64,000 nt of DNA from an uncultured bacterium (GTDB lineage Bacteria; DAOPZR01): NCBI GenBank assembly GCA_964517215.1, contig CAZFBR010000001.1:24907-88906 (forward strand), written 5' to 3'. Positions 388 through 52,504 of the stretch are shown here, in pieces. A model generated the notes under the pieces. That model worked only from the letters and a program-made list of their open reading frames with translations. It did no database searches and was not told the origin of the DNA. The translations under genes were made by a program, and so were the position numbers. Positions within the stretch are counted from its first letter, which is position 1. The number at the start of each line of letters is the position of its first letter.

Positions 388-1108
388 ACGATGCCGGAGC
401 GCGGGTCCGCAGTCAGGTTCATCCCGGAGAATGCCCAGAAGCGCGGCCATTCCCTGCCGGCGCTGGGATATTTGCGCTCCAGCGCGTTCGGCAATTCCAT
501 GCCGGGCAAGTTGCGCAGCCGGTCGCGTTCAAACCGGCGCCGCACGTTCTGCAGATGGCGCTCCCAGTCGGGCCGCAGCGATTCCGGCAGTACGGTCTGC
601 CGGTCCTTGTTCCCCTTGCCGGCGCGCATTGTGAGCACGCCGCGGTCGAAATCAACATCCGTGATGCGCAGCAACAGGCACTCCCGCAGTTGCAGTCCGC
701 ACCCGTAAATCATCCGTGCCATCAGCGCGGACATGCGGGGCATGCGCGTGGTTATCCTGCCGATTTCCGCATGCGTCAGCACCACCGGCAGTCGCCGCCG
801 CTCCGGTGCGCGCACTGGAACCGTTTAGGTCGGTTGGATTGCGGCCGAGGCAGTGGCACAGGAAGAACAGCAGGGCATTGAAGGCCTGGTTCTGGGTTTT
901 CGCAGACACCTGGCGTTCTCCTGCGATAAAAGACAGGTAATTGCGCACATCGGCGGAAGTCACTCCCTGCGGCGGCCGCTCATTGTGCCAGTGCCGGAAC
1001 TGCCGCAGGTAGGCGAGGCAGGTTCTCCGTCTGCGGCGACAACTGCCTGATGCGGATGATACGCCGCATTTCCGCGACGACGGCATCCCAGCGCAGCACA
1101 TCCGCCAT
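388..1108 (-). pseudogene. intI: Integron integrase (IntI-type tyrosine recombinase) remnant: at least two frameshifts, C-terminally truncated (ends after ...DPRSGIVRR; no HxxR/Tyr catalytic box)
   Basis: Reverse-strand translation in three frames gives an N-terminal segment (RRIIRIRQLSPQTE), a SAM-like core-binding segment (AYLRQFRHWHNERPPQGVTSADVRNYLSFIAGERQVSAKTQNQAFNALLFF), then a catalytic-domain segment (RLPVVLTHAEIGRI...LQLRECLLLRITDVDFDRGVLTMRAGKGNKDRQTVLPESLRPDWERHLQNV...LPNALERKYPSAGREWPRFWAFSGMNLTADPRSGIVRR). The ALERKYP...WPxFW block is the insertion specific to integron integrases. Confidence 0.7.
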
Positions 1109-1572
1109 CGACGGTACGGGGACCGATTCGGCGGCAGTGCGGTCTGCTGCCGGCGCGGAGGGCTGGCTGGCACGGTAATAGAGAAACAGGCGCACGGTTT
1201 CCCCCTGCCTGTTTTACCTGCCATGGTGCCTTGATGCGTCCAAGTTCATCAAGGAATTGCTGCAGTTCCTGCGGGGCGTTGCCGCTGGCGGCAGGGACGT
1301 GGCGATACCGCAGGAACAAGTCGATCCAGTATTGATAGAATCTCAACTTCTTGTCAGGAACATGGTGGACTGTGAGGTAATTACCTACTGCGGCTTGTTC
1401 ATCTGGTATCAGTGCTTGTCCCATAGTTATTCCCCTTTTTTGTGGATCAACCCTATACGGGTCTAATATACGGGCGCTGCATGATTTTCACCTCCGTTCA
1501 ATATTATCCTCCCACTGCCATAACATCCTTTCCAGCAAATAATAACAGTATCTATAACATTTCATTAACCTA

Positions 1573-1601
1573 TTGACATTCAACCCACCCAGTGGTACAA
1601 T
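1573..1601 (+). promoter_or_regulatory. Consensus sigma70-type promoter TTGACA-17bp-TACAAT (Pc-like cassette promoter candidate)
   Basis: TTGACA at 1573-1578, 17-nt spacer, TACAAT at 1596-1601; about 40-70 bp upstream of the first cassette ORF and divergent from the intI remnant. Confidence 0.5.
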
Positions 1602-1637
1602 CTAAAAATACGCTGTTATTCTACGGTTCTGTACAAT

Positions 1638-1964
1638 ATGAATGTTAGGCAGTGGATAGAGATAGTGATGACTGCGGATGAAAAGATGGAATGGCCAATT
1701 TGGAAATGCACAGCATTGACCGTCATGTTGTGTGGTGCTCCGGTCTTTGCGTCACCTTTGGGGTTCTCAATAATATCGGTTTTGATTTGGATGCTGCTGA
1801 TTATTATCTATGCCGGAATATTAAAAGTATTTGGTTCTAGTTTTGTGATAGAAGGCGCGATCATCGTACTTGTTATAGCGACTCTTGTTTTTGCGGGCGC
1901 GAAATATTTTACAAATAACCTTCAAGAACAACCCGCGCAACAAGAGATGACAAGCAATGCCTAA
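1638..1964 (+). CDS. Small integral membrane protein (3 predicted TM helices), integron-cassette-like; alternative start at 1668
   Basis: ORF in an AT-rich region; hydrophobic segments (LTVMLCGAPVFASPLGF, ISVLIWMLLIIIYAGIL, AIIVLVIATLVFAGA); its stop codon TAA lies inside the RYYYAAC box of the following attC-like repeat. Confidence 0.5.
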   Translation: MNVRQWIEIVMTADEKMEWPIWKCTALTVMLCGAPVFASPLGFSIISVLIWMLLIIIYAGILKVFGSSFVIEGAIIVLVIATLVFAGAKYFTNNLQEQPAQQEMTSNA

Positions 1965-2024
1965 CTTCGCGCCGCACCACGTTGGCGAAAGACGCGCCGA
2001 CGCGGTGAGCGCTATTCGTTGGCA
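1959..2024 (+). repeat. attC-like recombination site 1 (imperfect palindrome GCCTAAC...GTTGGCA)
   Basis: Begins GCCTAAC (RYYYAAC inverse core), ends GTTGGCA (core-like), internal imperfect dyad; about 80% identical in its ends to the second site at 2673-2736 (shared AACTTCGCG...GAGCGCT-N-TCGTTGGC). Confidence 0.5.
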
Positions 2025-2037
2025 TCCAAGAAATCAC

Positions 2038-2066
2038 TTGACATATAACGTTATACGGTATATAAT
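2038..2066 (+). promoter_or_regulatory. Consensus sigma70-type promoter TTGACA-17bp-TATAAT upstream of higB
   Basis: TTGACA 2038-2043, 17-nt spacer, TATAAT 2061-2066; ATG of higB at 2073. Confidence 0.55.
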
Positions 2067-2072
2067 GGAATT

Positions 2073-2360
2073 ATGATAGAGGATTTCCGGTGCAAAGAAA
2101 CCGAAAGGATCTTTCGGCGCGAGTATTCGCGGAAGTTGCCTGCTGGTATTCAGCGGGTTGCTTTGCGAAAATTACGAATGCTGAATCGGAGTTCGACCAT
2201 CGAAGACCTCCGCGTTCCTCCGGGGAACCGGTTAGAAGCCCTTTCCGGCAATCGGAAAGGCGAACACAGCATTCGAATAAATGATCAATGGCGTATTTGC
2301 TTTGTTTGGCGGAATGGTGACGCCCACGCCGTAGAGATCGTGGATTATCACAGGGGGTGA
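2073..2360 (+). CDS. higB: HigB-family toxin (RelE/ParE superfamily, plasmid maintenance system killer protein)
   Basis: 95 aa; LRVPPGNRLEALSGNRKGEHSIRINDQWRICFVWRNGDAHAVEIVDYH matches the HigB_toxin family signature; precedes the antitoxin with a 3-nt gap. Confidence 0.85.
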   Translation: MIEDFRCKETERIFRREYSRKLPAGIQRVALRKLRMLNRSSTIEDLRVPPGNRLEALSGNRKGEHSIRINDQWRICFVWRNGDAHAVEIVDYHRG

Positions 2361-2363
2361 ACT

Positions 2364-2660
2364 ATGAAAAAGATTCCGGTTGTACATCCAGGCGAGATAC
2401 TAAACGAGGAGTTTCTCAAGCCTCTGAACATCAGCCAAAACCAACTCGGCAAAGGACTCGGTGTATCCGCCCGAAGAATCAATGAAATCATCCACGGCAA
2501 ACGCGCCATCACAGCGGATACCGCACTAAGGCTATCTAGGTATTTTGGCAATTCCGCTAGTTTTTGGCTGGGTCTGCAAATGGACTACGAGCTCGATATG
2601 GCCGATGATGCCCTCGCCTCACGTATCAACAGGGAAGTCCAGCGCCTGAAGGTCGCATGA
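2364..2660 (+). CDS. higA: HigA-family antitoxin (XRE-type HTH)
   Basis: 98 aa; PGEILNEEFLKPLNISQNQLGKGLGVSARRINEIIHGKRAITADTALRLSRYFGNSASFWLGLQMDYEL is the canonical HigA HTH. Confidence 0.85.
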   Translation: MKKIPVVHPGEILNEEFLKPLNISQNQLGKGLGVSARRINEIIHGKRAITADTALRLSRYFGNSASFWLGLQMDYELDMADDALASRINREVQRLKVA

Positions 2661-2672
2661 CGACACAGCGGT

Positions 2673-2736
2673 GCCAACTTCGCGTTGCGGCGCTTCGCCG
2701 CTGGCGCGGATCAACGCAGAGCGCTCATCGTTGGCC
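2673..2736 (+). repeat. attC-like recombination site 2 (GCCAAC...GTTGGCC), paralog of site 1
   Basis: Starts 13 bp after the higA stop; GCCAACTTCGCG...GAGCGCTCATCGTTGGCC; dyad ends GCCAAC/GTTGGC. Confidence 0.5.
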
Positions 2737-2957
2737 GTATGAAGACGACAATTAGATTATGAGATAAAATGAAGAATTGATGAATTCGGAAATACGGGCA
2801 TTCTTACATCGTACGCGCGAGGCAAGTGGCTTCCGGACAAAAACGGAAAGGCGGAAATCGCCAGGTTGCGGCAGCATGCTCACTCGACCCTGCAAAAGAG
2901 TAAAAGGATAAACACAGTACCGCATCCCTTACGCACGGATCACAGAAAGCTCATCTG

Positions 2958-2986
2958 TTGACGCAATGTAAAAACTGTGATAAAAT
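2958..2986 (+). promoter_or_regulatory. Strong sigma70-type promoter TTGACG-17bp-TAAAAT upstream of tRNA-Cys
   Basis: TTGACG 2958-2963, 17-nt spacer, TAAAAT 2981-2986; tRNA starts at 3073. Confidence 0.45.
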
Positions 2987-3072
2987 CAATGATTGTACGG
3001 GTCGTGGTGTCGCTGCCCGGGCCGCTGGTCGGCCGGCGGGCGGCGGCGGTTTATCCCGCGACAGCGTAACGA

Positions 3073-3148
3073 GGCGGCGTAGCCAAGTGGCTAAGGCGAC
3101 GGTTTGCAAAACCGTTATTCACCGGTTCAACTCCGGTCGCCGCCTCCA
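3073..3148 (+). tRNA. tRNA-Cys (GCA), CCA encoded
   Basis: 76 nt; 7-bp acceptor stem GGCGGCG/CGCCGCC, anticodon stem ACGGT/ACCGT with loop TTGCAAA (anticodon GCA), T-arm ACCGG-TTCAACT-CCGGT. Confidence 0.85.
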
Positions 3149-3173
3149 TTTTTTGCAAGGAGTTTCCCAACTC

Positions 3174-3761
3174 ATGACTGACGAAGGCCGTCGCGTCTAT
3201 TCCAATAGCGAACGCGAAAAGATGGACCGCGGACAGAGTTTGATCCCGGATCTGGTGGAAAGCTTGTGGGTGGAGAAGCGCCGCCTGTATGCCCTGCGCG
3301 AGCTGCTGGTCAAGAACAACGTTGCCACCGCGCTGGAGCTGATCAATGACCTGCTGAAAATCAAGCAGGCGCGCGCGGACCGCAAACGGCCGCCGTTGTG
3401 GATGCAGTTTACCACCAGCGACGGCGTGCTGGTGGCGCGCGGCCAGACCACCGGCTACAATGAAAACGGGCTGGGGGCGCGAGTCGACTTTTTCTGGCAG
3501 GACAAGACCGCCTCCACCAAGGCCTCGGACCTGGCGGAACGGCCGGGCACGGTGGTGCTGTACTGCCCGCCCGGCGAATACTATCCGTACCCGCTGCCGG
3601 CAAAGCTGCTGCGGGTCGAGGCCTGCAATTCGCTGGAGCGCAAACAGGCGTTCGTTGCCATCGAGTTCACCCCGCCCATCATGAGCGACCTGCTTGAGGC
3701 GCTCACCGATTGGGCGGAGCAATGCGAGCGCTATCAGGCGCAGCAGCACGAAGGCAAGTAA
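3174..3761 (+). CDS. Hypothetical protein (196 aa) between two tRNA genes
   Basis: ATG at 3174 preceded by AAGGAG; the longer six-frame ORF from 2958 would overlap tRNA-Cys, so the internal start is used; no recognisable domain. Confidence 0.4.
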   Translation: MTDEGRRVYSNSEREKMDRGQSLIPDLVESLWVEKRRLYALRELLVKNNVATALELINDLLKIKQARADRKRPPLWMQFTTSDGVLVARGQTTGYNENGLGARVDFFWQDKTASTKASDLAERPGTVVLYCPPGEYYPYPLPAKLLRVEACNSLERKQAFVAIEFTPPIMSDLLEALTDWAEQCERYQAQQHEGK

Positions 3762-3775
3762 CCATGTCCACCCGC

Positions 3776-3851
3776 GGGCTCTTAGCTCAATGGTTAGAGC
3801 ATCGGACTCATAATCCGGCGGTTCTGGGTTCAAGTCCCGGAGGGCCCACCA
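3776..3851 (+). tRNA. tRNA with CAU anticodon (elongator Met or lysidine-type Ile2; not initiator), CCA encoded
   Basis: 76 nt; acceptor GGGCTCT/AGGGCCC, D-arm GCTC-AATGGTTA-GAGC, anticodon loop CTCATAA, T-loop TTCAAGT; the G1-C72 pair excludes initiator; resembles E. coli ileX-type more than metT. Confidence 0.8.
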
Positions 3852-12352: not shown

Positions 12353-13606
12353 GTGATGAGCAAATTGGCAAGCCAGGATCCCGCGGTGGCGCAGGCCATC
12401 AGCCGGGAAAGTGAACGTCAGCACAACAAGCTGGAACTGATCGCTTCGGAGAATTTCACCAGCGAAGCGGTGCGCGAAGCGGTCGGCAGCCTGCTGACCA
12501 ACAAATATGCCGAGGGCTATCCCGGCAAACGCTATTACGGCGGTTGTGAGGTCGTGGACAGCATCGAGGACCTCGCCCGCGACCGGGCCAAACAGCTGTT
12601 CGGCGCGAAGTTCGCCAACGTCCAGCCGCATGCCGGCTCGCAGGCGAATATGGCGGTTTTCTTCGCGCTGATCAAGCCGGGTGACGCCATTCTGACCATG
12701 GACCTGTCGCATGGCGGCCATCTGACCCACGGCAGCAAGGTCAATTTCTCCGGCCAGCTCTATGCGGTGCACCATTACGGGGTCACGCGCGAGACGGAAA
12801 CCATTGATTATGCCGCGCTCGAGCGGCAGGCGCATGCCGTGCGGCCGAAACTCATCCTCGCCGGCGCGTCGGCCTATCCGCGCACGATCGATTTCGCGCG
12901 GTTCCGCGCCATCGCCGACAGTGTCGGTGCGCATTTTGTCGTCGACATGGCGCATATTGCCGGACTGGTTGCCGCGGGCGTGCATCCGTCGCCGCTGCCC
13001 CATGCCACCGCCGTCACCTCGACCACGCACAAAACCCTGCGCGGTCCGCGCTCCGGCCTGGTGCTGTGCAATGACGAGGCCGTGGCCAAAGCCGTCGACA
13101 AGGCCGTTTTCCCCGGCCTGCAGGGCGGGCCGCTCATGCATGTCATCGCCGGGAAGGCGGTCGCTTTCCAGGAAGCGCTGCAGCCGGCGTTTCACACCTA
13201 CCAGCAGCAGGTGCTGGCCAACGCCCGGGCCCTTGCGGAAACCCTGACTGCCGCGGGCCTGCGCCTGGTGTCCGGCGGCACCGACACCCACCTGCTGCTC
13301 ATCGATCTGCGGCCGCGTTCGGTCAGCGGTGCGGACATCCAGCTGGCACTCGACGAGGCCGGCATCACCTGCAACAAGAACACCATCCCGTTCGAAACCC
13401 GGCCGCCGGCCCAGGCCAGCGGCATCCGGCTCGGCACCCCGGCGCTGACCACCCGCGGCATGCAGGAGGCGGAGATGCGGCAGATCGGCGCCTGGATCGC
13501 CGCGGTCATCGAGCAGCATGACGACCACGCCCGCCTGGAAAGCATCCGCCGGTCGGTCGGAGAGCTGTGCAGCCGGTTTCCGCTGTTCGCGGAACGGTGG
13601 CAGTAG
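12353..13606 (+). CDS. glyA: Serine hydroxymethyltransferase
   Basis: [34 protein letters not shown] (PLP-lysine region). Confidence 0.95.
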
Positions 13607-14156: not shown

Positions 14157-14504
14157 ATGGACATCACACGTGAGGAAAAGGACGGCGTGGTCATCCTGCG
14201 CTTGAATGAGGATGTGCTGGTCGAGAACTTTCAGGAGCTCAAGACCGTTCTGGAAGAGCTCATCACGCGGGAGAACGACCGCATCGTCATCGACATGCAT
14301 CGCATCCAGTATTTCTGCAGCCAGGGCCTGGGCACCATCACCTCGTCGCTGAAGATCATCCGCGAACGGGGCGGTGATATCAAGATCCTGAACCCGGCCG
14401 GCCGCATCCTCAAGCTGTTCGAGCTGACCCGGCTCAACAAGATCCTTGACATTCTGCAGGAAGAAAAAGACCTGAAGGAGCGCTTCCAGCTCCCCACGCC
14501 ATGA
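14157..14504 (+). CDS. STAS-domain anti-sigma-factor antagonist (SpoIIAA/RsbV-like)
   Basis: 115 aa; VVILRLNEDVLVENFQELKTVLEEL...IVIDMHRIQYFCSQGLGTITSS (conserved Ser in the DxxxxxxDSxGL context); RBS GAAGGAGGG. Confidence 0.8.
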   Translation: MDITREEKDGVVILRLNEDVLVENFQELKTVLEELITRENDRIVIDMHRIQYFCSQGLGTITSSLKIIRERGGDIKILNPAGRILKLFELTRLNKILDILQEEKDLKERFQLPTP

Positions 14505-15355
14505 CCACGACCCCCGCGGGCGACGCCCCGGGGCAGATGCCGGGCAACCTCACCACCCGCTGCCTGGTCTTTCAGCATGCCGCCCTGCCGCCCGCCCTGC
14601 TGCCGCTGTTGCGCGCCGGCGGTGTGCGGGAAATCGAAATCATCACCGCCCAGCAGATCGCCACCATCACCCAGCCGCAGATGGCCGATTTCATCGCGGT
14701 TGTCGACGAGAATGACGAGCAGCTGTCCGTGCAGGCCGAACGCCTGCGCCAGAACACGCAGTGGAAGCTGCTCCCGTGGCTGGTCTTCGGCGCGGAAACC
14801 GAGTATACCCGCCGGGTGGCGGTGCTGCGCCGCGGCTTCTGGGAATACCTGCAGTTCGACGATGAGGAGCGCACCCGCAAGAAGATCGGGCTGACCATCG
14901 ACTTCTACCGCAACTGCCGGATCAGCCGCCACATGGAGGGGTGGGTTTCCTTCCAGTTCAAGAGCGAATACAGTTTCGTGCGCGAAGTGAATTTTTTCAT
15001 TTCCCGGCTGCAGTACATGACCACGCTGACCCAGGCGGAAATCGAGGACATCCAGTACGCCTTTCTCGAAATCGGCAACAATGCCGTCGAGCACGGGAAC
15101 ACCGGCAACCCGGAAAAGCTGGTCGACATCAGCTACCTCATTTTCGAGGACAAGCTCATCATCCGGGTCGCCGACGAGGGGCAGGGCTTTGACGTCAGCA
15201 AGATCCGCAACCCGCTCGACGACGACCGCATCGAGCATGCGCGCGGGCGCGGCATATTTCTGGTCAAGCAGATGATGGACGAGGTTGACTTCAACGACAA
15301 GGGCAATGTCTGTCTCATGACCAAACGCTTCGCCCCGCTGCCCGCCACCGCCTGA
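14501..15355 (+). CDS. Anti-sigma regulatory factor-type Ser/Thr kinase (HATPase_c, RsbW/SpoIIAB-like) fused to an N-terminal degenerate receiver-like domain
   Basis: C-terminal FLEIGNNAVEHGN (N-box), IIRVADEGQGFD (G1), GRGIFLVKQMMDEVDF (G2); N-terminal ~140 aa has an alternating beta/alpha pattern (CLVFQHAA, EIEIITA, FIAVVDEN, LPWLVFGAE) but lacks the conserved acidic pocket; 4-nt overlap with the STAS gene. Confidence 0.7.
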   Translation: MTTTPAGDAPGQMPGNLTTRCLVFQHAALPPALLPLLRAGGVREIEIITAQQIATITQPQMADFIAVVDENDEQLSVQAERLRQNTQWKLLPWLVFGAETEYTRRVAVLRRGFWEYLQFDDEERTRKKIGLTIDFYRNCRISRHMEGWVSFQFKSEYSFVREVNFFISRLQYMTTLTQAEIEDIQYAFLEIGNNAVEHGNTGNPEKLVDISYLIFEDKLIIRVADEGQGFDVSKIRNPLDDDRIEHARGRGIFLVKQMMDEVDFNDKGNVCLMTKRFAPLPATA

Positions 15356-15383
15356 CTTCCGGCCTGCACAAGGAGAACACATC

Positions 15384-17150
15384 ATGACTGTTGAACTGCT
15401 ATCCGGCAACGAAGCCCTTGCCCGCGGCGCCTACGAGGCGGGCGTCACCGCGGCCTTCGGCTACCCCGGCACTCCGTCGACGGAGATCCTGGAATATGTC
15501 GCCGCGCATTTCCGCGACGCCATCTATGGCGAATGGTCGCCCAACGAGAAGGTCGCCTTCGAGGCGGCCGCGGGCGCCGCCTACACCGGCGCGCGCACCC
15601 TCTGCACCATGAAACATGTCGGGCTCAATGTCGCGGCCGATCCGCTGATGACCATGGCCTATACCGGGACGGTGGGCGGCTTCGTCGCCATCGTCGCCGA
15701 CGATCCGGGCATGCACAGCTCGCAGAACGAACAGGACACGCGCCGCTACGCGGCGTTTGCGCGCATTCCCTGCTTCGAGCCGGCCGACAGCCAGGATGCC
15801 GCCGACGTCATGCGCGCCGCCTATGCCGTCAGCGAGCAGCACCGCACTCCGGTTATCGTCCGCACCACGACGCGCGTCAGCCATTCCCGTTCGCGGGTCG
15901 TCCTGCGCGACCGCGAACCGGCGCCGCTGCCGGTCGGGTTTGTCAAGGATCCGGCGCGGTTCGTGCCCATTCCGCTGTGGGCGCGCCCGATGCGCGTGCG
16001 GGTCGAGGAGCGCTATGCCGCCCTGCGCACGGCGGCGGAACAGTCGCCGCTCAACCGCATCGAATGGCGCGACCGGAAACTGGGGATCATTGCCCCGGGC
16101 ATCGCCTACCAGTACGTGCGCGAGGTCTTTCCGGAGTATTCCACGCTCAAACTCGGCTTTACCCATCCCTATCCCGACGCGCTGCTGCGTGAGTTCGCCG
16201 CCGGCTGCGCCGAAGTGCTGGTGGTGGAGGAACTGGATCCGCTGGTCGAGGAACACTGCCGGGTGCTCGGCCTGGCGGTGCGCGGCCGCGACCTGGTGTC
16301 GGGCATCGGCGAGCTGTCGCCGCTCCGCCTGCGCGAAGTGCGCGCCCGCTGGGAAGGAGCGGCATTCGCCGCCCCGCAACCCATCGCCGCGGCGGCGGAT
16401 CTGCCGGGCCGGCCGCCGGTGCTGTGCCCCGGCTGCCCGCATCGCGGGGTGTTTGCCGCGCTGGCCCAGCATGACGTCGTGGTTACCGGCGATATCGGCT
16501 GCTATTCGCTCGGCGTGCTGCCGCCGCTGGCGCGCATGGACACCATCCTGTGCATGGGCGGCGGCGTGTCGCTGGCGCACGGCATGGACAAGGCGGGCGA
16601 ACCGAAGCCGGTGGTCGGCATTGTCGGTGACTCAACCTTCTTTCATTCCGGCATCACCGGCCTGCTGAATATCGCCTACAACCGCGGCAAGGCGACGATC
16701 ATTGTCGTCGACAACCGGACCACGGGCATGACCGGCCACCAGGATAATCCCGGCACCGGCCGGACGCTGCTGGGTGAACCGAGTCCGGCGGTGCGGATCG
16801 AGGACGTGGCCCGGGCCTGCGGCATTCGCCGGGTGGTCACCCTCAACCCGTACGACCTGACCGCCACCAGCCGCATCCTCGCGGAGGAATTGGCGGCAGA
16901 CGAGCCGTCGCTGCTGGTCTCGGTCGCCCCCTGCGTGCTCAAGGTGCGCCAGCGGGTCGGTCCCGTGCGCACCGTTGCCGCCGCTGCCTGCAAAAAGTGC
17001 CGGGCCTGCCTGAAGATCGGCTGCCCCGCCATTGAAAGCGCCGACGCCGGCCAGCCGCCGCGCATCAATCCGGAATTGTGCAACGGCTGCGGGCTCTGCG
17101 CGAAGGTCTGCAGATTTTCCGCCATCATTGAAACGGAGGTGCGCTCATGA
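15384..17150 (+). CDS. iorA: Indolepyruvate ferredoxin oxidoreductase alpha subunit
   Basis: TPP-binding and pyrimidine-binding domains (GYPGTPSTEILE, GCPHRGVF) plus C-terminal 2x[4Fe-4S] motifs CKKCRAC...CNGCGLCAKVC. Confidence 0.9.
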   Translation: MTVELLSGNEALARGAYEAGVTAAFGYPGTPSTEILEYVAAHFRDAIYGEWSPNEKVAFEAAAGAAYTGARTLCTMKHVGLNVAADPLMTMAYTGTVGGFVAIVADDPGMHSSQNEQDTRRYAAFARIPCFEPADSQDAADVMRAAYAVSEQHRTPVIVRTTTRVSHSRSRVVLRDREPAPLPVGFVKDPARFVPIPLWARPMRVRVEERYAALRTAAEQSPLNRIEWRDRKLGIIAPGIAYQYVREVFPEYSTLKLGFTHPYPDALLREFAAGCAEVLVVEELDPLVEEHCRVLGLAVRGRDLVSGIGELSPLRLREVRARWEGAAFAAPQPIAAAADLPGRPPVLCPGCPHRGVFAALAQHDVVVTGDIGCYSLGVLPPLARMDTILCMGGGVSLAHGMDKAGEPKPVVGIVGDSTFFHSGITGLLNIAYNRGKATIIVVDNRTTGMTGHQDNPGTGRTLLGEPSPAVRIEDVARACGIRRVVTLNPYDLTATSRILAEELAADEPSLLVSVAPCVLKVRQRVGPVRTVAAAACKKCRACLKIGCPAIESADAGQPPRINPELCNGCGLCAKVCRFSAIIETEVRS

Positions 17151-17728
17151 CCGCCACCACCAGTGTTGTGCTCGCCGGCGTCGGCGGGCAGGGCATCCTG
17201 CTGGCCGGCACCATCATCGCCCGGGCCGCGCTCAGCGCCGGGTTCGATGCGAAAACCAACGAAGTGCACGGCATGGCCCAGCGGGGCGGGTCGGTGATCG
17301 CCCAGGTCCGCTTCGGGCATGCCGTGAACAGTCCGCTCGTCGAGGAAGGCACCGCCAGCGTGCTGGGCTCGCTGGAGCTGATCGAGGCGCTGCGCTTTGC
17401 GCATTACCTCGCGCCGGACGGGCTGGCGGTTGTTTCCACCCAGCGCATCATTCCCGTCACGGTCTCCTCGGGCAAGGCCGCCTATCCCGCCGATGCCGAG
17501 GCGCGGGTGCGGGCCGCCTTTCCCCGGCTGGTTCTGGTGGATGCCATCGCCGAAGCGCATGCCCTGGAGGATGTGCGCACGGCCAATGTCATTCTGCTGG
17601 GCGCCATGGCCGGCGGGCTGGCGATCCCCGCCGACGCCTGGCGCGAGGCGATTACCGCCAGCGTCAAGCCGCAATTTGTCGAGCGCAATCTGCGCGCCTT
17701 CGCCCGCGGCCAGGCCCTGTGCCGGTGA
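17147..17728 (+). CDS. iorB: Indolepyruvate ferredoxin oxidoreductase beta subunit
   Basis: VLAGVGGQGILLAGTIIARA...MAQRGGSV (pyruvate-ferredoxin oxidoreductase gamma-like fold); ATGA overlap with iorA. Confidence 0.9.
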   Translation: MTATTSVVLAGVGGQGILLAGTIIARAALSAGFDAKTNEVHGMAQRGGSVIAQVRFGHAVNSPLVEEGTASVLGSLELIEALRFAHYLAPDGLAVVSTQRIIPVTVSSGKAAYPADAEARVRAAFPRLVLVDAIAEAHALEDVRTANVILLGAMAGGLAIPADAWREAITASVKPQFVERNLRAFARGQALCR

Positions 17729-17730
17729 GC

Positions 17731-19002
17731 ATGTTCAACCCCGCCGCGGAAACGCTTCCGGCGGAGGCCCTGCAGGCGCGGCAGCTGGAACTGCTGCGCG
17801 CGCTGGTGGCGCGCGCCCGGGCCGGCAATCCGCTGCACCGGGCGCGGCTGGCGGATATTGCGGTGAGCGATTTGCGCACGACCGACGATATCGTCCGGCT
17901 GCCGTTCATGGACAAGGAACTGTTCCGCACGTCCTATCCGGTGCAGCTGGCCCTGACCCCCGCCGCGTCGTTTGTCGAAATGCACATGTCCTCGGGGTCC
18001 ACCGGCACGCCGGTGGTCATGCCCTACACGCGTGCCGACCTGGCGCAGTGGGCGGAATGCATGGCGCGCTGTTTCATTATGGCCGGGGCCCGGCCGGGTG
18101 ATCCCGTGCAGATTACCCCGTCATTCGGGCTGTTCAACGGCGGGTTCGGTTTTTATCACGGCGCGCGTGCGGCCGGGCTGTTCATCATTCCCACCGGCGC
18201 GGGCAACACCCAGCGCCAGCTCCGGCTGGCCCGTGACTTCCACACCCGCGTGCTGACGGGGGTGGTCTCGTACGGCCTGCGCTGCCTCGAGGTGCTCGAA
18301 GAGACGGGCGGACGACTGCCCGACCTGCAGATCGGCATGTTTGGCGCCGAAACCTTCTCCGAGGCGCTGAAGGAAAAGTTCCGCACCGCCTTCGGCCTCG
18401 AGGTCTTTGACATCTACGGCATGACGGAAACCGGCGGCGTCGGCACCCTGGGCATGGACTGTCCCGCGCACGACGGCATCCACCTGTGGGAGGATCACTA
18501 TCTCGCGGAAATCATCGATCCGGCGACCGGCAACCGGGTTCCTGACGGCACCGCGGGCGAACTGGTGGTCACGTCGCTGACCCGTGAGGCGCTCCCGGTG
18601 ATCCGGTTCCGCACCGGCGACTGCACCCGCATCGTCAGCCGCGCGCGCTGCGCCTGCGGGCGCACCCACCTGCGCCTCGCCCCGGTCACCGGCCGGGTCG
18701 ACGACATGCTCATCATCAAGGGGGTCAATTTCTTTCCCCGCCAGGTCGAACAGGCGCTGATGGCCATTCCCGGGGTGGGGAACAACTGGCAGATCATTAT
18801 CGAGGAGAACTGCGGGGTCAGGGATGTGCGCGTCAATGTCGAAGCCGCCCCGGCAGTCACCGGCTATCTGGTGGAAAAAGCGCTGAAGGAAGCGCTCGGC
18901 TTCTCGCCCAAGGGGGATGTGTTCCCGCTGGGCGCCCTGCCCCGCCAGGAAGGCAAGGCCCAGCGCGTGTTCCACCGCCAGCCCGACGGCTCGCTGCGCT
19001 GA
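17731..19002 (+). CDS. paaK: Phenylacetate-CoA ligase family (aryl-CoA ligase, PaaK-like) paralog 1
   Basis: HMSSGSTGTPVV (P-loop), YGMTETGGVG, RFRTGD, DMLIIKGVNFFP motifs; internal ATG chosen because the upstream extension overlaps iorA. Confidence 0.85.
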   Translation: MFNPAAETLPAEALQARQLELLRALVARARAGNPLHRARLADIAVSDLRTTDDIVRLPFMDKELFRTSYPVQLALTPAASFVEMHMSSGSTGTPVVMPYTRADLAQWAECMARCFIMAGARPGDPVQITPSFGLFNGGFGFYHGARAAGLFIIPTGAGNTQRQLRLARDFHTRVLTGVVSYGLRCLEVLEETGGRLPDLQIGMFGAETFSEALKEKFRTAFGLEVFDIYGMTETGGVGTLGMDCPAHDGIHLWEDHYLAEIIDPATGNRVPDGTAGELVVTSLTREALPVIRFRTGDCTRIVSRARCACGRTHLRLAPVTGRVDDMLIIKGVNFFPRQVEQALMAIPGVGNNWQIIIEENCGVRDVRVNVEAAPAVTGYLVEKALKEALGFSPKGDVFPLGALPRQEGKAQRVFHRQPDGSLR

Positions 19003-19011: not shown

Positions 19012-20157
19012 GTGCTCGCATATCTCGGTTTTTTCGCCATCTATGTCCTGGGGTACGGCGGCCTGCAGTATTGCTGCTGGCGCAAACTGCGGCATCTCGT
19101 CCGGGGCCGGCGGCAGCGCGTGCTGTTCATGGCGTGGTTCATCCTGCAGCTTGCCCTGCCCATCCTCACCCGTGTCGCCGAACGCAGCGACTGGCTGCTG
19201 ACCGCACGGCTGCTGGCCTGGCCCGGCTACCTGTGGATGGGATACAGCTTTCTGCTGTTGGTGTTCGCGATGCTGATCGACCTGCCGGCAGGACTGCTCG
19301 TTCTCCTGCGCCGCCGCCGCCCGGACGCGGTTCCGCCGCCGGGAACCCCGCGCATCTTCAAACTGACCGGTCCTGTCGCCGCCGTGCTGGCGCTGCTGGT
19401 CACCCTGTACGGCGCGTATGCCGCGCGCCAGATGGTGATCGAACAGCATACCCTCACCACCGGCAAACTGCCGGCCGCCCTGCCCCGCCTGCGCATCGTC
19501 CAGATCTCCGACCTGCATATCGGGATCATGACCGACCCCGCCCGGCTGACCGACATTGTCGCGCAGGTGCGCGCGCTGCAGCCGGATCTGCTCGTCGCCA
19601 CCGGCGACGTGGTCGACGGGACGATGGCGCCGCATCAGGCCGGCGCGGCCGCCTTTGCCGCACTGCAGCCGCGTTACGGGAAATTTGCCGTGACCGGCAA
19701 CCATGAGTTTTATGCCGGCCTGGCCCAGGCCCTCACCTGGCTGAACGACGCCGGGTTCCAGGTGCTGCGCGGGGAATCATCCAATTACCACCGGGTTATC
19801 AACCTTGCCGGCGTCGACGATTACGCGACGAACGGCGAATTGCCGCGCGCGGTCGATGAACGCGAACTGCTGGCCACGCTGCCGCGCGACCAGTTCACCC
19901 TGCTGCTCCGCCATCGTCCGGACGTTCCGGCCAATACCGTTGGCCTGTTTGATTTGCAGTTGTCCGGCCATACCCATCGCGGCCAGATCTTTCCCTTCAC
20001 CGGCGTGGTCTGGCTGGCAACCGGCCATACCTCCGGCTGGTATGAAGCAGGGAACAATTCGCGCTTGTATGTCAGCCGCGGCCTCGGCACCTGGGGCCCG
20101 CCGCTGCGCGTGTTCTCCCCGCCGGAGATTACGGTGTTTGATCTCGTGCGCGGATAG
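19012..20157 (+). CDS. Membrane-anchored calcineurin-like metallophosphoesterase (YkuE-like)
   Basis: N-terminal TM helices; ISDLHIG, ATGDVVDG, VTGNHEF, GHTHRGQ metallophosphatase motifs. Confidence 0.75.
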   Translation: MLAYLGFFAIYVLGYGGLQYCCWRKLRHLVRGRRQRVLFMAWFILQLALPILTRVAERSDWLLTARLLAWPGYLWMGYSFLLLVFAMLIDLPAGLLVLLRRRRPDAVPPPGTPRIFKLTGPVAAVLALLVTLYGAYAARQMVIEQHTLTTGKLPAALPRLRIVQISDLHIGIMTDPARLTDIVAQVRALQPDLLVATGDVVDGTMAPHQAGAAAFAALQPRYGKFAVTGNHEFYAGLAQALTWLNDAGFQVLRGESSNYHRVINLAGVDDYATNGELPRAVDERELLATLPRDQFTLLLRHRPDVPANTVGLFDLQLSGHTHRGQIFPFTGVVWLATGHTSGWYEAGNNSRLYVSRGLGTWGPPLRVFSPPEITVFDLVRG

Positions 20158-21686: not shown

Positions 21687-23096
21687 TCAGGTGCCGAACC
21701 CGCGCCGGGTCATCCGCCCCCAGCCCTTGCGGCGCAACAGCGCGGAAACAATTCCCTGCAACCGCCAGAAATTGATCAGCTGGCGATAGCCGAAATTCTC
21801 GACCAGCGCCAGCGCAAACAGCAGGACGACATCCCGCAGCCGCTGATAGCGGCGCAGGGTCAGTTCCTCGAGTCCCACCGCCGCCAGCGACAGCACCGCC
21901 CCCAGCACAAATGCGACCATGAAAAACGCCAGCGCATAGTGCGGGGTGACAATACCGCCGGCCACCGAAGCGGCAAACACCACATAGCCGAGAAACTCGA
22001 TTACCGGACCCAGCATCTCCAGAAAATAGAAATAGGGGAAGGCGATCAGGCCGATGCCGCCGTAGCGCGGATTGAACAGCATGCGCCGGTGCCGGGCCAG
22101 GGTTTCGGTCAGACCGCGCTGCCAGCGGTCGCGCTGGCGGCGCAGCACGGCAAATTTTTCCGGACATTCCGTCCACGCCACCGGATCGGGGACAAAGCCG
22201 ATGCGGTACGGCACCTGCTGTTCGCGGCAATACCGGTGCAGGCGCACCACCAGTTCGACATCCTCCCCGACCGTGTCGCGGGTATAGCCGCCGGCGCACA
22301 CCACCACATCGCGGCGGAACACGCCAAAGGCGCCGGAGATAATGAAGGTGGCGTTGACCGCATCCCAACCCATGCGCCCGGCGAGGAAGGCGCGCAGGTA
22401 TTCCATCACCTGGAAACGTGCCAGCCATGAACGCGGCAAGCCCACCTGCCGGACCAGGCCGTCGCGCACTGTGCAGCCGTTGACGATGCGGATGATTCCG
22501 CCCGTGGCGACCACCCGGGTGTCTTCGACAAAGGGCCGGACAATGCGCAGCAGGGATTCGCGTTCAAGCAGGGTGTCCGCATCCAGGGCACAGAAGAGCG
22601 GCGTCCGGCAGAAACTGACCCCGACGTTAAGCGCATCGGCCTTGCCGCCGTTCTCCTTGTCGATCACCCACAGCTGCGGATAGCGCGCGCTGCGATAAAT
22701 CCCCCGCACTGCCTGCGCCGGCAGCGCCGCCGTCGGCAGACGTGCCGCCGGCTGCAGGGCATACGCCTCCTGCAGGCGCGCCAGCGTGCCGTCCTGCGAG
22801 CCGTCATTGATGACCATGATCTCGTAGTCGGGATAGATCAGGGTCAGCAGCGCCCGCACGCTGTCCACGCAGGTTTGTTCCTCGTTATAGGCCGGGGCCA
22901 GCAGCGTCACCGGCGGGGCAATATCGCCGGTCAGCACCTGCGCCGCGTCCAGCGCCTTCAGCCGCCGGGCATACCGGGTCAGGCCGCGAAACGCGAAGAT
23001 GCTGGTCAAGAGATAGACACTGTTGACCGCGATGAAATAGGCGAGCACCAGCCAGTTGAAGGCATGCAGGATCGACCAGGCCAGGGCGCTGCTCAT
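21687..23096 (-). CDS. Membrane glycosyltransferase family 2, processive PgaC/IcaA/NodC-like (2 N-terminal plus 3 C-terminal TM helices)
   Basis: LLAPAYNEE, D-x-D (ALDADT), GG (ATGG), QRDRWQRG (Q-x-x-RW) motifs; 469 aa from the internal ATG that ATGA-overlaps the upstream gene. Confidence 0.75.
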   Translation of the reverse strand: MSSALAWSILHAFNWLVLAYFIAVNSVYLLTSIFAFRGLTRYARRLKALDAAQVLTGDIAPPVTLLAPAYNEEQTCVDSVRALLTLIYPDYEIMVINDGSQDGTLARLQEAYALQPAARLPTAALPAQAVRGIYRSARYPQLWVIDKENGGKADALNVGVSFCRTPLFCALDADTLLERESLLRIVRPFVEDTRVVATGGIIRIVNGCTVRDGLVRQVGLPRSWLARFQVMEYLRAFLAGRMGWDAVNATFIISGAFGVFRRDVVVCAGGYTRDTVGEDVELVVRLHRYCREQQVPYRIGFVPDPVAWTECPEKFAVLRRQRDRWQRGLTETLARHRRMLFNPRYGGIGLIAFPYFYFLEMLGPVIEFLGYVVFAASVAGGIVTPHYALAFFMVAFVLGAVLSLAAVGLEELTLRRYQRLRDVVLLFALALVENFGYRQLINFWRLQGIVSALLRRKGWGRMTRRGFGT

Positions 23097-24142
23097 TGCT
23101 GCTGCTCCAGTTGGCGGAACAGCGCGGCGCGCGGATGCCCGGCCGCCGCCAGCCGGGCCAGTTCGCCCGCGCCGTGCAGCCGCTGCAGCGCCCGCGCCGC
23201 CGCCATCGCCACCCATACCGAGGCATCGTCCAGCAGCGGGCGCAGGAACGGGGCATCGGCCGGCAGCCCGAACGCCGCCAGGGCGGCCGCCGCCTGACCG
23301 CGCAGAATCGCGTCAGGATCCCGCAGCAGCAAACGGACCGTCGGCAGCTGTTCCGCGGTCCCGACCGCCGCCAGCAGGCGCAGCGCGGCGGCGCGCAATT
23401 CGCGGTCGCTCGTTGTCGTCGCTGCCAGTGCGGCGGCGGGTGCGGCGGCGGCGGCATGATGCAGCTGCCGCAGCGCTTCCGCCGCCACGAGGCGCGTCTG
23501 CACCGGCGCCTGCGCGTCGGTGAAGCAGGCCAGCAGCTGGTCGCTGGCGGGCGGCCGTGCCAGGAGTGCCGCCAGATACCGCGGCTGCCACAAGGCAAAG
23601 CGCGGCATCACGGCCAGCAGTTCCGGCAGGAACCGGGTTCCGGCGGTTGTCGCCAATGCCCGCGCCGCAGTCATCGCCACCAGCGGAGAGCGATCCTGCA
23701 GTGCCGCGAGAAACAGGGTCTCATACCGGCCGGCGGCCAACTGGCCCAGGGTCTGCACGGCCCGGGCACGCTGCTCCGCATCGCCGTTAGCGGCCTGACC
23801 CTCGATATGCCGGAGATACGGCAGTGCGAGCTGGCTCAGCCGCTCGGCTTCGACGCCGCGCAGGCGCTGCCGCAGGCGCAGCAGGTAATCGAGAAAACGG
23901 GCGGCATCGGCCGGGGCAACCGCCGGCGGTGCCGCCGGCTCGCCGGCCAGCGCCGCGAATACCGGCGCCTGCCACTCCTGTTCCAGCCGAAGCCAATGCG
24001 CTGCCCGCCGCCGGTTGCGCCGTCGCAACAGGATCGCGCTGCAGGAAAACGCCAGCGCCAGCAGCAGCAGGAGCGCGATGCTGATAGCCAGGATCCGGAG
24101 CAGGTGATCCTGCGCCGTCAGGGAAAAAAAGGCGGTGAGCAT
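23093..24142 (-). CDS. Membrane-anchored HEAT/PBS-lyase-like repeat protein
   Basis: N-terminal TM helix (ILAISIALLLLLALAF), then repeated ~30-aa units of the form xxVRxxAAxALGxxG; stop overlaps the GT2 start (ATGA). Confidence 0.6.
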   Translation of the reverse strand: MLTAFFSLTAQDHLLRILAISIALLLLLALAFSCSAILLRRRNRRRAAHWLRLEQEWQAPVFAALAGEPAAPPAVAPADAARFLDYLLRLRQRLRGVEAERLSQLALPYLRHIEGQAANGDAEQRARAVQTLGQLAAGRYETLFLAALQDRSPLVAMTAARALATTAGTRFLPELLAVMPRFALWQPRYLAALLARPPASDQLLACFTDAQAPVQTRLVAAEALRQLHHAAAAAPAAALAATTTSDRELRAAALRLLAAVGTAEQLPTVRLLLRDPDAILRGQAAAALAAFGLPADAPFLRPLLDDASVWVAMAAARALQRLHGAGELARLAAAGHPRAALFRQLEQQQ

Positions 24143-24145
24143 CAG

Positions 24146-25585
24146 CTATTTCCGGCGCAACAGCCGCCGGGCGCGCGCCACGAGCTCCGTCGGGGAGAAG
24201 GGTTTGGTCAGATAGTCGTTGGCGCCCAGTTCCAGCCCGCGGCTCAGATCGTGCTCCGCACTCAGTCCGGTGAGGATGATGACCGGCACACCGGTGCAGT
24301 CCGGCCGGGCGCGCAGTTCCCGCAGCACCTGCAGACCGTCCTTGACCGGCATCTGCACGTCGAGAAGGATGAGGTCGTACCGCTCGTGCGCAACGGCCTG
24401 CAGCGCGGCCTGGCCGTCCGCAACCTGATCGACCGTCATTCCCTCGCGCTGCAGGCGATGGCTGATCAGGGCGACGAAGAGCGGATCGTCGTCGGCCAGC
24501 AGGACCCGCTGACGCTGGCCGATACTGCAGGATTCCGGGGTTACCGTGCAATTGCGTCCATGGCTTTTTGCCGCCTCAAGGCAGCGCGCGGCCGCATCTG
24601 CCGCCAGCGGCAGCTCGGCAACCGTGACCGGCACCACGCCGGCGGAAAAGGTCGGCGGCGGCGGCGGGTCTGTCGCCAGACGCTGCCGCACCCCCGCGAT
24701 TGCCGCTGCCACCGCCGCCAGCGGTCCGGCGGCATACAGCAGGAGCACGGCGCTGTCCGTCCAGCGACTGATTGCGACGGGCGCGGGGGTCGCTGCGCGC
24801 AGCAGCCCGAGCAGCCGGCGCAGCAAGGCATCGCCCGCGGCCATCCCGCGTGCGGCGTTGAGTGCGGCCAGATTATCGACGTCCAGCATCGCCAGGCATG
24901 GCGGATTATCCGCGGCGGCGGTCCGGACTGCGCCGGCAAACGCCGACACCAATGCGGCGCGATTGCCGGCTGTTGCCAGCAGGTCCGGTGGTGCGGCGGT
25001 ATGCTGATCCAGTTGCGCACTGACCGCAGCCAGGACCTGCGCCGGGGCAAAGGGTTTGGCGAGACAGGCTGCCGCCCCCAGCGCCAGGCATTCGGCCTGC
25101 ACCGCATCGCCGATCCTGCCGGAGAGCACAATCACCGGAACGGTGGCGGTTGCGGGCTGTTCCCGGAACTGCACCAGCAGATTGCGGCCGTCAATGTCAC
25201 CCAGCATCAGATCAAGCAGAATCAGGTTGGGCGGTTGCGCCGCAATCAGCTGCTCCGCCTGGACCGCAGTGGCAGCGCTGAGGACCGTCCGGCCCGGTCC
25301 GCGCAACAGGTCGCCCAGCAGCTGGCGCATGGCCTCATCATCGTCGATAATCAGTACGGTCGCGCCGGCCGCGCCGGCCATGGCATCGAGTGCCGCCAGC
25401 AGTTCGCGGGCGGCCGCCGCCATCTCCTCCGGCGGCGCGGTCCGCACCCGCTGCTGCGCTGCTGCCACGGCGTCGGAAACCGGCTCCGGGATGGTCGCTG
25501 CCAGCCGGCGGACCGTGGCGGCCAGCTCCGTCGCCGATTCCTGATGGGTCAGCGCCAGCCGCAGCGCCGCGCGCGTGGCATTCAT
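24146..25585 (-). CDS. Response regulator, REC - degenerate GGDEF - REC
   Basis: REC1 (LIIDDDEAM...LLDLMLGDIDG...AKPF), GGDEF-like core (LAMLDVDNLAALNAARGMAAGDALLRRL) with the GG[DE]EF position reading RWTDS, REC2 (LLADDDPLF...LLDVQMPVKDG...TKPFSPTEL). Confidence 0.7.
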   Translation of the reverse strand: MNATRAALRLALTHQESATELAATVRRLAATIPEPVSDAVAAAQQRVRTAPPEEMAAAARELLAALDAMAGAAGATVLIIDDDEAMRQLLGDLLRGPGRTVLSAATAVQAEQLIAAQPPNLILLDLMLGDIDGRNLLVQFREQPATATVPVIVLSGRIGDAVQAECLALGAAACLAKPFAPAQVLAAVSAQLDQHTAAPPDLLATAGNRAALVSAFAGAVRTAAADNPPCLAMLDVDNLAALNAARGMAAGDALLRRLLGLLRAATPAPVAISRWTDSAVLLLYAAGPLAAVAAAIAGVRQRLATDPPPPPTFSAGVVPVTVAELPLAADAAARCLEAAKSHGRNCTVTPESCSIGQRQRVLLADDDPLFVALISHRLQREGMTVDQVADGQAALQAVAHERYDLILLDVQMPVKDGLQVLRELRARPDCTGVPVIILTGLSAEHDLSRGLELGANDYLTKPFSPTELVARARRLLRRK

Positions 25586-39221: not shown

Positions 39222-39659
39222 CTACAGGGCGTAGACCTGCTCAGCGGTCAGCACGGGAATGCTGGCCGCCGCCAATGCCTTGACGCCCGCGGCAATATTC
39301 TCCGTGCGCATGACCACCACCGCATGCTTGGCGGACTTTTCCACGAACGCGTAGATGTATTCGACATTGATCCCGGCAGTGCTCATCGCGCGCAGCACCG
39401 CCGCCAGCCCGCCCGGCCGGTCGCTCACCAGCACGGCGATAACCTCGGTTTCCTTGACGGTGAACCGCGCCTTTTCCAGCACCTGCTTGGCCCGGTCCGG
39501 TTCCGGCACAATCAGCCGCAGGATGCCGAAATCAGCGGTATCGGCGATTGATAACGCGCGGATATTGATCCCCGCCGCGCCCAGCGTCTCCACCGCCTCG
39601 AGCAGCCGTCCCTGCTTGTTCTCCAGAAAGATCGAGATCTGCTTGACTTTCATGATCAT
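39222..39659 (-). CDS. ACT-domain protein (tandem ACT), partner of the aryl-CoA ligase
   Basis: ISIFLENKQGRL...GINIRALSI and IAVLVSDRPGGLAAVLRAMSTAGINVEY ACT signatures. Confidence 0.7.
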   Translation of the reverse strand: MIMKVKQISIFLENKQGRLLEAVETLGAAGINIRALSIADTADFGILRLIVPEPDRAKQVLEKARFTVKETEVIAVLVSDRPGGLAAVLRAMSTAGINVEYIYAFVEKSAKHAVVVMRTENIAAGVKALAAASIPVLTAEQVYAL

Positions 39660-39668
39660 TCCTTTCCC

Positions 39669-40988
39669 CTACAGGTTCCGCTGATCGATGACGCGCACGG
39701 CCTTGCCTTCGCTGCGCGGCAGCGACTTCGGCTCGACCAGAGCCACCTTCACCCGCAGGCCGACGGCCTGCTCGATATGCCGCTCCACCTTGCGTTTGAA
39801 CTCCTCGACATGGCGGACCTCGTCGGAGAAGAAGCCCCTGCTCGCCTCGACCCGCACTTCGACCTCATCCAGCCCGCCGGCCGGGCGCGAGACGATGATC
39901 TGGTAGATCGGCTCCAGACCCTTGATCTCGAAGAGCGCGCGCTCGATCTGCGACGGGAAGAGAATGACCCCGCGGATCTTGAGCATGTCGTCCGACCGGC
40001 CGGTGATGCGGCTCATGCGCACCAGGGTGCGTCCGCAGGCGCAGGTCCCCCGCTCGAGCGAGGTCAGGTCGCGCGTGCGGAAACGCAGCATGGGCATCCC
40101 CTCGCGGGTGAGTGTGGTCAGCACCAGCTCGCCCACGGCGCCGTCGGGAAGCGGCTCGAGGGTTTCGGGCGACACCACCTCGGGAAAGAACAGGTCCTCG
40201 GCAATGTGCAGCCCGCACTTGGCGGGGCATTCCTGCGCCACGCCCGGTCCGATGACCTCGGTCAACCCGTAGATGTTGAGCGCCTGCAGCGGATAGCGCT
40301 TCTCGATCTCCGCACGCATGTGCTCCGTCCACATTTCCGCGCCGAACAGCCCGGCCTTGAGTTTCGTTTTGTGCAGGTCGATTCCCGCCTCGGCGGCGAG
40401 CTCGGCCAGGTGCAGCATGTAGGAGGGCGTGCCGGTGATGATTGTGCTGCCGAAATCCTGCAGGATGGTGAGCTGGCGCTTGCTGTTCCCTGCGGAGATC
40501 GGCACCAGCATGGCGCCGATGCGGTGTGCCCCGTAATGCACGCCCAGTCCGCCGGTGAACAGCCCGTAGCCGTAGCAGTTCTGCACGATATCCTCGGGCG
40601 TGGCCCCGGCCATGGTCATGGCGCGGGCCATCGCCTCGCCCCACAGCCTGATGTCACCGGCGGTATACCCGCTCACCACCGGCTTGCCGGTCGTGCCCGA
40701 CGAGGTGTGGATCTCGACAATCTCGCGGCGCGGGACAGCGAACATGCCGAAGGGATAGCCCGCGCGCAGTTCCGGCTTGCCGATGCACGGCAGCCGGCGG
40801 ATGTCGTCGAGCGTGCGGATATCCTCCGGCCTGACCTTCGCCGCCTTGAACGCCTGGCGGTAATACGGCACGCGCGCATAGGCGTGCGCGACCGTCGCCT
40901 TCAGCCGGCGCAACTGCAGCGCGCGGCGCTTCGCCGCCGGCATGCACTCCGCCGCGCGGTCCCAGATGAGGTATTTTTTCCGTGCCAT
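39669..40988 (-). CDS. paaK: Phenylacetate-CoA ligase family paralog 2
   Basis: RBS AAGGAG; [40 protein letters not shown]. Confidence 0.85.
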
Positions 40989-40998
40989 GATCGGCTCC

Positions 40999-41418
40999 TT
41001 AGTTCCCGTCGTACATGGTGAGGCCGGCCCCGGCCAGCTTGCGGCGCGCCGCCGCGATATCATCGGTCTCGACGACAAAATAGGCGATGGCCCGCTCCTG
41101 CGGAATCAGCACGTAGGCATTGTCGATATTGACCGCCTGCTGCTGCAGCGCGTCGGCCACGGCATGCAGTCCGCCCGGCCGGTCGCTGATGGCGATCGCC
41201 AGCACCTCGGTCACCGCCACGGTGAACCCCGCCTGCTCGAATGCGGTGGTGGCGCGGTCGGTATCGTCGACGATGAACTTGATCACCCCGAACTTGCCGC
41301 TGCTGGCGATGTTCAGCGCGAGGATGTTGACCTTTTCCTGCGCCAGCACCCGGCAGATATTCTCCAGCTTGCCCGGCTGGTTCTTGGCGAACACCGAAAT
41401 CTGGCGTAATGCGCCCAT
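40999..41418 (-). CDS. ACT-domain protein (tandem ACT)
   Basis: [31 protein letters not shown] and [24 protein letters not shown]. Confidence 0.7.
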
Positions 41419-41427
41419 GGCTTCCTC

Positions 41428-42708: not shown

Positions 42709-42814
42709 GATCCGCCTCGGTACAATTATGATGGCCGTATTGTAGCCCTTTTTGTCCGCACTGGCAACTTTTGCCGTCTTGCCCAACAGCAGCGACTGAG
42801 CTACAATAAACCGC

Positions 42815-52483: not shown

Positions 52484-52504
52484 CGCCGGCCTGCGGAGAG
52501 GATT

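Follow-up and report, generated by a model that had tools for sequence, protein, structure and literature searches.

What does a kinase of the anti-sigma factor type do when its N-terminal half matches no Pfam family and no sigma factor gene lies nearby? This question is raised by a pair of genes in an uncultured bacterium (contig CAZFBR010000001.1), encoding a STAS protein and a GHKL kinase within a 64-kb stretch of DNA, here called the window and analysed over its full 64,000 nucleotides. The locus is best explained, with a probability of roughly 0.7, as a two-gene partner-switching module whose kinase carries a receiver (REC) domain predicted to be phosphorylation-dead. The features concerned were as follows (aa, amino acids):

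14157-14504, + strand: STAS gene, 115 aa, single-domain, anti-sigma-antagonist type
14501-15355, + strand: kinase gene, 284 aa, pseudo-receiver-HATPase_c_2 serine kinase
14555-14932, + strand: degenerate receiver domain of the kinase, residues 19-144; codon of D69 at 14705-14707
14933-15328, + strand: GHKL/Bergerat kinase domain, residues 145-276; N, G1 and G2 boxes intact

The sequence-only reading of this DNA had proposed a STAS antagonist paired with an anti-sigma-type kinase, and profile searches agreed. The STAS protein scored above the cut-offs of Pfam STAS (PF01740; E 7.7e-14, 51.8 bits against 22.6) and of the anti-sigma-antagonist superfamily TIGR00377 (62.3 against 53.45 bits). The kinase exceeded the cut-off of HATPase_c_2 (80.7 bits against 27.4, E 1.2e-22), which was the sole Pfam domain detected in its 284 residues; the scan gave no PP2C domain in the same protein and no DNA-binding domain in either member of the pair. 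The N box (ExxxNAxxH), G1 box (DxGxG) and G2 box (GxG) of the kinase were all present, as had been claimed, and their residues (E190, N194, H198, D225, G227, G229, G249 and G251) were invariant in 16 relatives and aligned with those of RsbW and SpoIIAB. The phosphorylatable serine expected of the STAS protein was also found. Ser55 (codon 14319-14321, motif CSQGLG) aligned with Ser58 of SpoIIAA (DSSGLG) and with its counterparts in TM1442 and RsbV, these three being the best solved relatives, and was invariant in four orthologues.

The first 145 or so residues of the kinase gave no Pfam match. Response_reg (PF00072) was absent for all five N-domains of the subfamily at E<=10, and comparison with PDB sequences gave no match. 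A profile of the N-domain only, searched against 1.84 billion representative proteins, returned its own family and one REC-REC protein (E 8e-5) in which both receivers were covered. Alignment to a receiver alignment with hhalign gave 86% probability (E 5e-6, 83 columns) and placed D69 at the phospho-acceptor position; the control comparison with a STAS alignment gave 0.06%. With the full-length profile, the five family members were followed by metagenomic REC-HATPase_c_2 proteins (P0008-P0011; 276-281 aa, E 1e-30 to 1e-32, PF00072 plus PF13581) that were collinear across both domains. Because of the REC-REC match, the hhalign result with the aspartate in register and these collinear relatives, the N-domain is concluded to derive from a receiver; it also has the (beta-alpha)5 fold. 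It is very improbable that the N-domain is instead another flavodoxin-like domain, B12-binding-like or a novel sensor, that resembles REC through shared fold only, since the same three links sit at the level of sequence. A GAF or PAS sensor, named beforehand as the identity that would speak against a receiver, was rejected, as no match of that kind was obtained and the REC evidence was positive.

The residues used for phosphotransfer were then compared by position. The Mg2+-binding DD pair after beta1 is replaced by QH, HQ, HG, HR or YQ in the five members, against DD in P0008-P0011. The invariant Gly97 stands in for Ser/Thr at the end of beta4, and Phe/Leu119 replaces Lys at the end of beta5 (YLQFD versus YVFKPF in the canonical relatives). 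At the end of beta3, the invariant D69 aligns with the acceptor aspartate. The earlier description of a pseudo-receiver without the acidic pocket was therefore right as to REC homology and the loss of the DD pair, Thr/Ser and Lys, and needs one refinement, since the acceptor aspartate is retained. Because the DD pair, Thr/Ser and Lys have been lost, the domain is predicted to be unable to take a phosphoryl group.

The two halves of the domain differed in conservation. Between the window kinase and an orthologue of 53% identity, residues 19-89 (beta1-alpha3, the phosphorylation side) were 18% identical. Identity rose to 56% over residues 90-144 (beta4-alpha5, normally the output face, with the linker helix) and to 68% over the kinase domain. 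By these values the alpha4-beta5-alpha5 half is conserved and the beta1-alpha3 half fast-evolving.

Structure prediction of the N-domain, as the sequence-only reading had proposed, was carried out with AlphaFold2 (AF2). The model from the five-member family had a pLDDT (predicted local distance difference test) of 57 and its N-domain was unusable, and a 16-sequence alignment was used instead; this included canonical REC relatives, and the sequence evidence for REC is independent of the model. The kinase fold was equivalent to that of SpoIIAB and RsbW. The top Foldseek match was LvrC (LIC11110) of Leptospira interrogans, a REC-Bergerat response regulator (PDB 9qih, the chain being deposited as 'SenB'; Nat Commun 2026, PMC13269768), to which the profile aligned over its full length (E 3.7e-41). 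LvrC is the closest characterised protein to the kinase. Its receiver is phosphorylated on D53 by LvrB, and in the crystal the 4-5-5 surface of the receiver helps to form the dimer and is in contact with the second protomer's Bergerat domain (PMC13269768). By analogy, we infer that selection at the window locus keeps the alpha4-beta5-alpha5 face as in LvrC, and that the domain may serve as a phosphorylation-independent scaffold or regulatory module.

Both proteins are single chains of about 280-300 aa in which a receiver precedes an RsbW-like GHKL domain. They differ in three respects: the receiver of LvrC is canonical, whereas in that of the window kinase the DD pair, Thr/Ser and Lys are missing; the Bergerat domain of LvrC carries about 30 inserted residues following the N box, with no counterpart in the window kinase; and no STAS partner is described in the LvrC paper, whereas the window kinase is probably translationally coupled to one. 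The nearest relatives outside the subfamily, P0008-P0011 (32-35% identity), share the length and the lack of an insertion with the window kinase but keep DD/D/S/K and match PF00072. The canonical relatives adjoin a SIR2 gene and have no STAS or DUF2148 gene adjacent. Because they have no STAS neighbour, coupling to a STAS gene is confined to the pseudo-receiver branch. In two unrelated metagenomes (L016:7247-8831 and L018:268-1881), a gene for a SIR2-family deacetylase lies immediately 5' of the P0008 and P0010 genes, which makes the pairing a recurrent one.

Other known systems were compared on the same points. SpoIIAB-SpoIIAA and RsbW-RsbV of Bacillus share the kinase-STAS chemistry, as judged by motif for the window pair, but their kinases have no N-terminal domain, sigF or sigB is in the same operon, and the PP2C phosphatases are known. 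The pair resembles SypE-SypA of Vibrio fischeri, in which an RsbW-type kinase fused to a receiver acts on a single-domain STAS protein with a non-sigma output (SypA), and likewise HsbR-HsbA of Pseudomonas aeruginosa. SypE and HsbR also contain a PP2C domain, a functional receiver and another domain order, whereas the window kinase has no PP2C domain and a receiver that is probably dead. In other partner-switching systems (RsbY, RsfR) the receiver is on the phosphatase. The N-domains of TadZ/CpaE (PDB 4lda, 4dn6) are atypical or pseudo-receivers fused to ParA/MinD-type ATPases, not to a GHKL kinase, and showed no detectable sequence relationship to the window N-domain. Literature searches on partner switching together with pseudo-receivers found nothing relevant.

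The locus is a degenerate offshoot of the REC-Bergerat architecture, and pseudo-receivers and orphan STAS/kinase pairs are each already well known. The subfamily comprised five 90% clusters among 5.8 billion proteins and three representatives among the 1.84 billion. Pattern scans based on the N-domain added one locus from a GTDB species genome and one from a further contig among the JGI metagenomes. All sources were metagenomes or metagenome-assembled genomes, and the subfamily is a rare, lineage-restricted variant of a known signalling module.

The comparative set comprised four independent genomic contexts: the window, L015 (a relative of 81-85% identity), L012 (66%) and L011 (53%, on an 11.7-kb contig from a genome of 48% G+C). 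The genes next to the pair in the window were:

12356-13606, + strand: glyA, serine hydroxymethyltransferase (SHMT); Pfam SHMT 6.5e-167; in the conserved upstream block, in synteny with L011
13609-14133, + strand: DUF2148 protein, 174 aa, CxxCx4CxxC motif; Pfam DUF2148 4.4e-27; 23 nucleotides (nt) before the STAS gene
15384-17150, + strand: iorA, downstream neighbour of the kinase gene
17147-17728, + strand: iorB, downstream neighbour
17719-19002, + strand: paaK, downstream neighbour

These genes form part of a tight co-directional run (aroK-aroQ-M24 peptidase-SpoU-glyA-DUF2148-STAS-kinase-iorA-iorB-paaK-Metallophos). The STAS and kinase open reading frames (ORFs) share four bases (ATGA overlap), a GGAGG lies 5' of the STAS ATG, and the kinase start has no Shine-Dalgarno sequence of its own. 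Because of the overlap and the single GGAGG before the first ATG, the kinase is probably translationally coupled to the STAS gene. The G+C content at third codon positions (GC3) of the pair was 0.83-0.88, as in the + strand neighbours, and the local dip in G+C at the pair arises at codon position 2. Horizontal acquisition, considered on account of the lower G+C, was rejected, since GC3 matches the neighbours and the dip reflects amino-acid composition. A long ORF of 392 aa that runs antisense to the pair (14231-15409) was set aside as a shadow ORF of a high-G+C region (GC3 0.67 against 0.83-0.88).

The STAS protein was 79-96% identical to its orthologues. No other protein of the block was as conserved in the comparison of the window with L011 (STAS 79%, window 14157-14504 against L011:3974-4321; SHMT 65%, DUF2148 57%, kinase 52.5%, SpoU 46%, M24 peptidase 42%). 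The two genomes have a G+C of 66% and 48%. Recent transfer as the cause of this identity was excluded, as the overlapping kinase gene is far more diverged. The constraint on a protein of 115 aa suggests several simultaneous binding partners. In the STAS profile search, three clusters (P0025-P0027) were >80% identical and the rest among the 120 matches listed of 2,833 were <=30% identical; the profile alignment still held Bacillus subtilis SpoIIAA, orthologues of which dominated the matches listed, and intermediate relatives may be hidden behind them.

The sequence-only reading had suggested control of aromatic amino-acid fermentation genes as the output, that is, that the pair acts on the adjacent iorAB-paaK (aromatic amino-acid/arylpyruvate fermentation) at the level of protein or expression. 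The arrangement is operon-like, with the same strand, a 28-nt gap and no convincing terminator between kinase and iorA, and in L015 the order STAS-kinase-iorA-iorB is kept. In that contig, which ends upstream, paaK does not follow iorB. In L012 the order DUF2148-STAS-kinase is followed by an AT-rich stretch without iorA, and in L011 convergent OTCase genes come after the run M24-SpoU-glyA-DUF2148-STAS-kinase. Only the window lineage and L015 have iorAB behind the pair, and neither protein of the pair has a DNA-binding domain. This suggestion was not upheld; such an output is improbable, and iorA, iorB and paaK probably lie outside the module. In L012 the change to the AT-rich region (L012:2320-2847) after the kinase gene is abrupt. 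This region has a gene for a small hydrophobic protein in the opposite orientation, and its insertion into the locus may have disrupted synteny downstream of the kinase. In the window, the Metallophos gene at the end of the run (19012-20157) was considered as the absent phosphatase and left aside, being unlinked to the pair in L011 and known by its Pfam Metallophos match alone.

It is DUF2148 that is conserved next to the pair, preceded by glyA on contigs that extend far enough, and not iorAB-paaK. A DUF2148 gene stands 18-23 nt before the STAS gene in every context reaching there (window, L011 and L012), and in L011 the co-directional run ends with the kinase. The functional unit could on this evidence be DUF2148-STAS-kinase, with the Cys-rich and presumably Fe-S DUF2148 protein as a redox input or target, and the unit may tune one-carbon and amino-acid metabolism around glyA. 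An unusual feature in the same direction is Cys54 (14316-14321 covers Cys54-Ser55), which is invariant and takes the place of the usual Asp before the serine. However, the three independent contexts all lie inside a conserved housekeeping block (M24-SpoU-glyA), the linkage may reflect inherited gene order and not function, a literature search on DUF2148 gave nothing relevant, and no solved homologue was found. Such a unit is doubtful. A fuller version, in which DUF2148-STAS-kinase is a self-contained, post-translational and sigma-independent switch with DUF2148 and Cys54 as redox input, the dead receiver as a docking platform and the STAS protein bound to a core metabolic or translational target, is more speculative and unlikely. 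Considered separately, Cys54 beside Ser55 and the Cys-rich DUF2148 neighbour might hint at redox sensitivity.

The scan of the window combined precomputed Pfam calls on matching contigs with our own scans and covered essentially all substantial ORFs and called genes. No Sigma70-family domain was detected among those checked across the 64 kb (14 kb upstream and 49 kb downstream of the pair), nor on the L011 contig or on L015, and no histidine kinase gene was adjacent to the pair. The claim that the pair is an orphan holds as to the sigma factor gene. As to the architecture it holds less well, given the canonical REC-HATPase_c_2 relatives and LvrC, solved in 2026.

A classical anti-sigma/antagonist pair is a tentative alternative, in which the kinase would sequester a sigma factor encoded elsewhere, the unphosphorylated STAS protein would release it and the pseudo-receiver would only modulate. 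The nearest solved folds of the kinase include the anti-sigma factors SpoIIAB, RsbW and UsfX, and its best NCBIfam matches are TIGR01924 (RsbW) and TIGR01925 (SpoIIAB). The authors of the LvrC study read that protein as an anti-sigma factor with an unlinked sigma factor yet to be found (PMC13269768). The NCBIfam scores, however, fall far under the equivalog cut-offs (64.7 against 155.05 for TIGR01924; 41.2 against 135 for TIGR01925), no sigma gene occurs in any of the four contexts, and several RsbW-type kinases, such as SypE and SiaB, have non-sigma outputs. The STAS protein is likewise no SpoIIAA orthologue by NCBIfam (TIGR02886, 43.8 against 114.75). By these scores, the two proteins are members of the STAS and HATPase_c_2 superfamilies and not orthologues of RsbW, SpoIIAB or SpoIIAA.

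HsbA is a STAS protein with a non-sigma target. Because the STAS protein is the most conserved of the block and no sigma gene occurs in any of the four contexts, we lean slightly towards the STAS protein itself being the effector, which would bind a highly conserved non-sigma target by analogy with SypA, SiaC, BtrV and HsbA. A sigma factor whose gene lies elsewhere is nearly as probable a target.

As a partner-switching module with a phosphorylation-dead receiver, the pair would operate as follows. The RsbW/SpoIIAB-type GHKL kinase, probably a dimer, would transfer phosphate from ATP to Ser55 of the STAS protein translated together with it, as its motifs suggest. The unphosphorylated STAS protein would bind the kinase and the phosphorylated form would not. 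The kinase descends from REC-Bergerat response regulators such as LvrC, in which a histidine kinase controls the Bergerat domain through aspartate phosphorylation, and the dead receiver would survive as a phosphorylation-independent scaffold or regulatory domain. As in the crystal dimer of LvrC, the conserved alpha4-beta5-alpha5 face and the long alpha5 linker probably pack on either the kinase domain or the second protomer.

Several points weigh against this account. The invariant D69 could have an atypical structural or even chemical use. The N-domain of the AF2 model is biased toward the REC fold by the canonical relatives among the 16 sequences and is circular if taken alone, and the hhalign probability was 86% and not >95%. 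Kinase activity and phosphorylation of Ser55 are predicted from motifs, and the high conservation of the STAS protein is only indirect evidence for an extra partner. No PP2C/SpoIIE domain, such as a phosphatase that resets the switch would carry, was detected in the ORFs and genes covered by the scan of the window.

Other features of the window were recorded. Positions 650-3850 form a stretch of lower G+C (0.57) with an N-terminal fragment of a phage integrase (652-1224, - strand), a HigB/HigA toxin-antitoxin pair (2073-2660), tRNA-Cys (3073-3148) and tRNA-Met (3776-3851), and look like the remnant of a tRNA-associated mobile element. An ORF of 267 aa at 2958-3761, which overlaps tRNA-Cys, is probably spurious. 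Phenylacetate-CoA ligases of the PaaK type occur as three paralogues, at 39222-42816 (- strand) and 17719-19002 (+ strand); two of the three each have a small ACT-domain protein as partner, and a radical-SAM gene comes next at 42815-43741. Positions 21687-25585 (- strand) encode a REC-GGDEF-REC response regulator beside a HEAT-repeat protein and a family-2 glycosyltransferase (cellulose/chitin-synthase-like), likely an exopolysaccharide module controlled by cyclic di-GMP; the receivers of this regulator are canonical, unlike the N-domain of the kinase. A McsA-McsB-ClpC operon followed by MurT/GatD lies at 50925-57203, both sets being best known from Gram-positive bacteria; the window also encodes MlaD and FtsX/MacB-type proteins. 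A bacterial match to the GPP34 (Golgi phosphoprotein 3) family (E 7.8e-40) is encoded at 60831-61607.

Partner-switching modules are a major bacterial signalling device, several of them with non-sigma outputs, and REC-Bergerat proteins were first characterised only in 2026, with LvrC. At present the result is a refinement at the level of annotation and no surprise. The locus represents a branch of REC-Bergerat proteins in which the phosphorylation chemistry of the receiver appears to have been lost and the output face kept, and in the same branch the kinase became coupled to a very strongly conserved STAS protein. Its study could reveal how an alpha4-beta5-alpha5 surface regulates a GHKL kinase without phosphorylation, and could lead to a new target of a STAS protein in this uncultured lineage of anaerobic environments.
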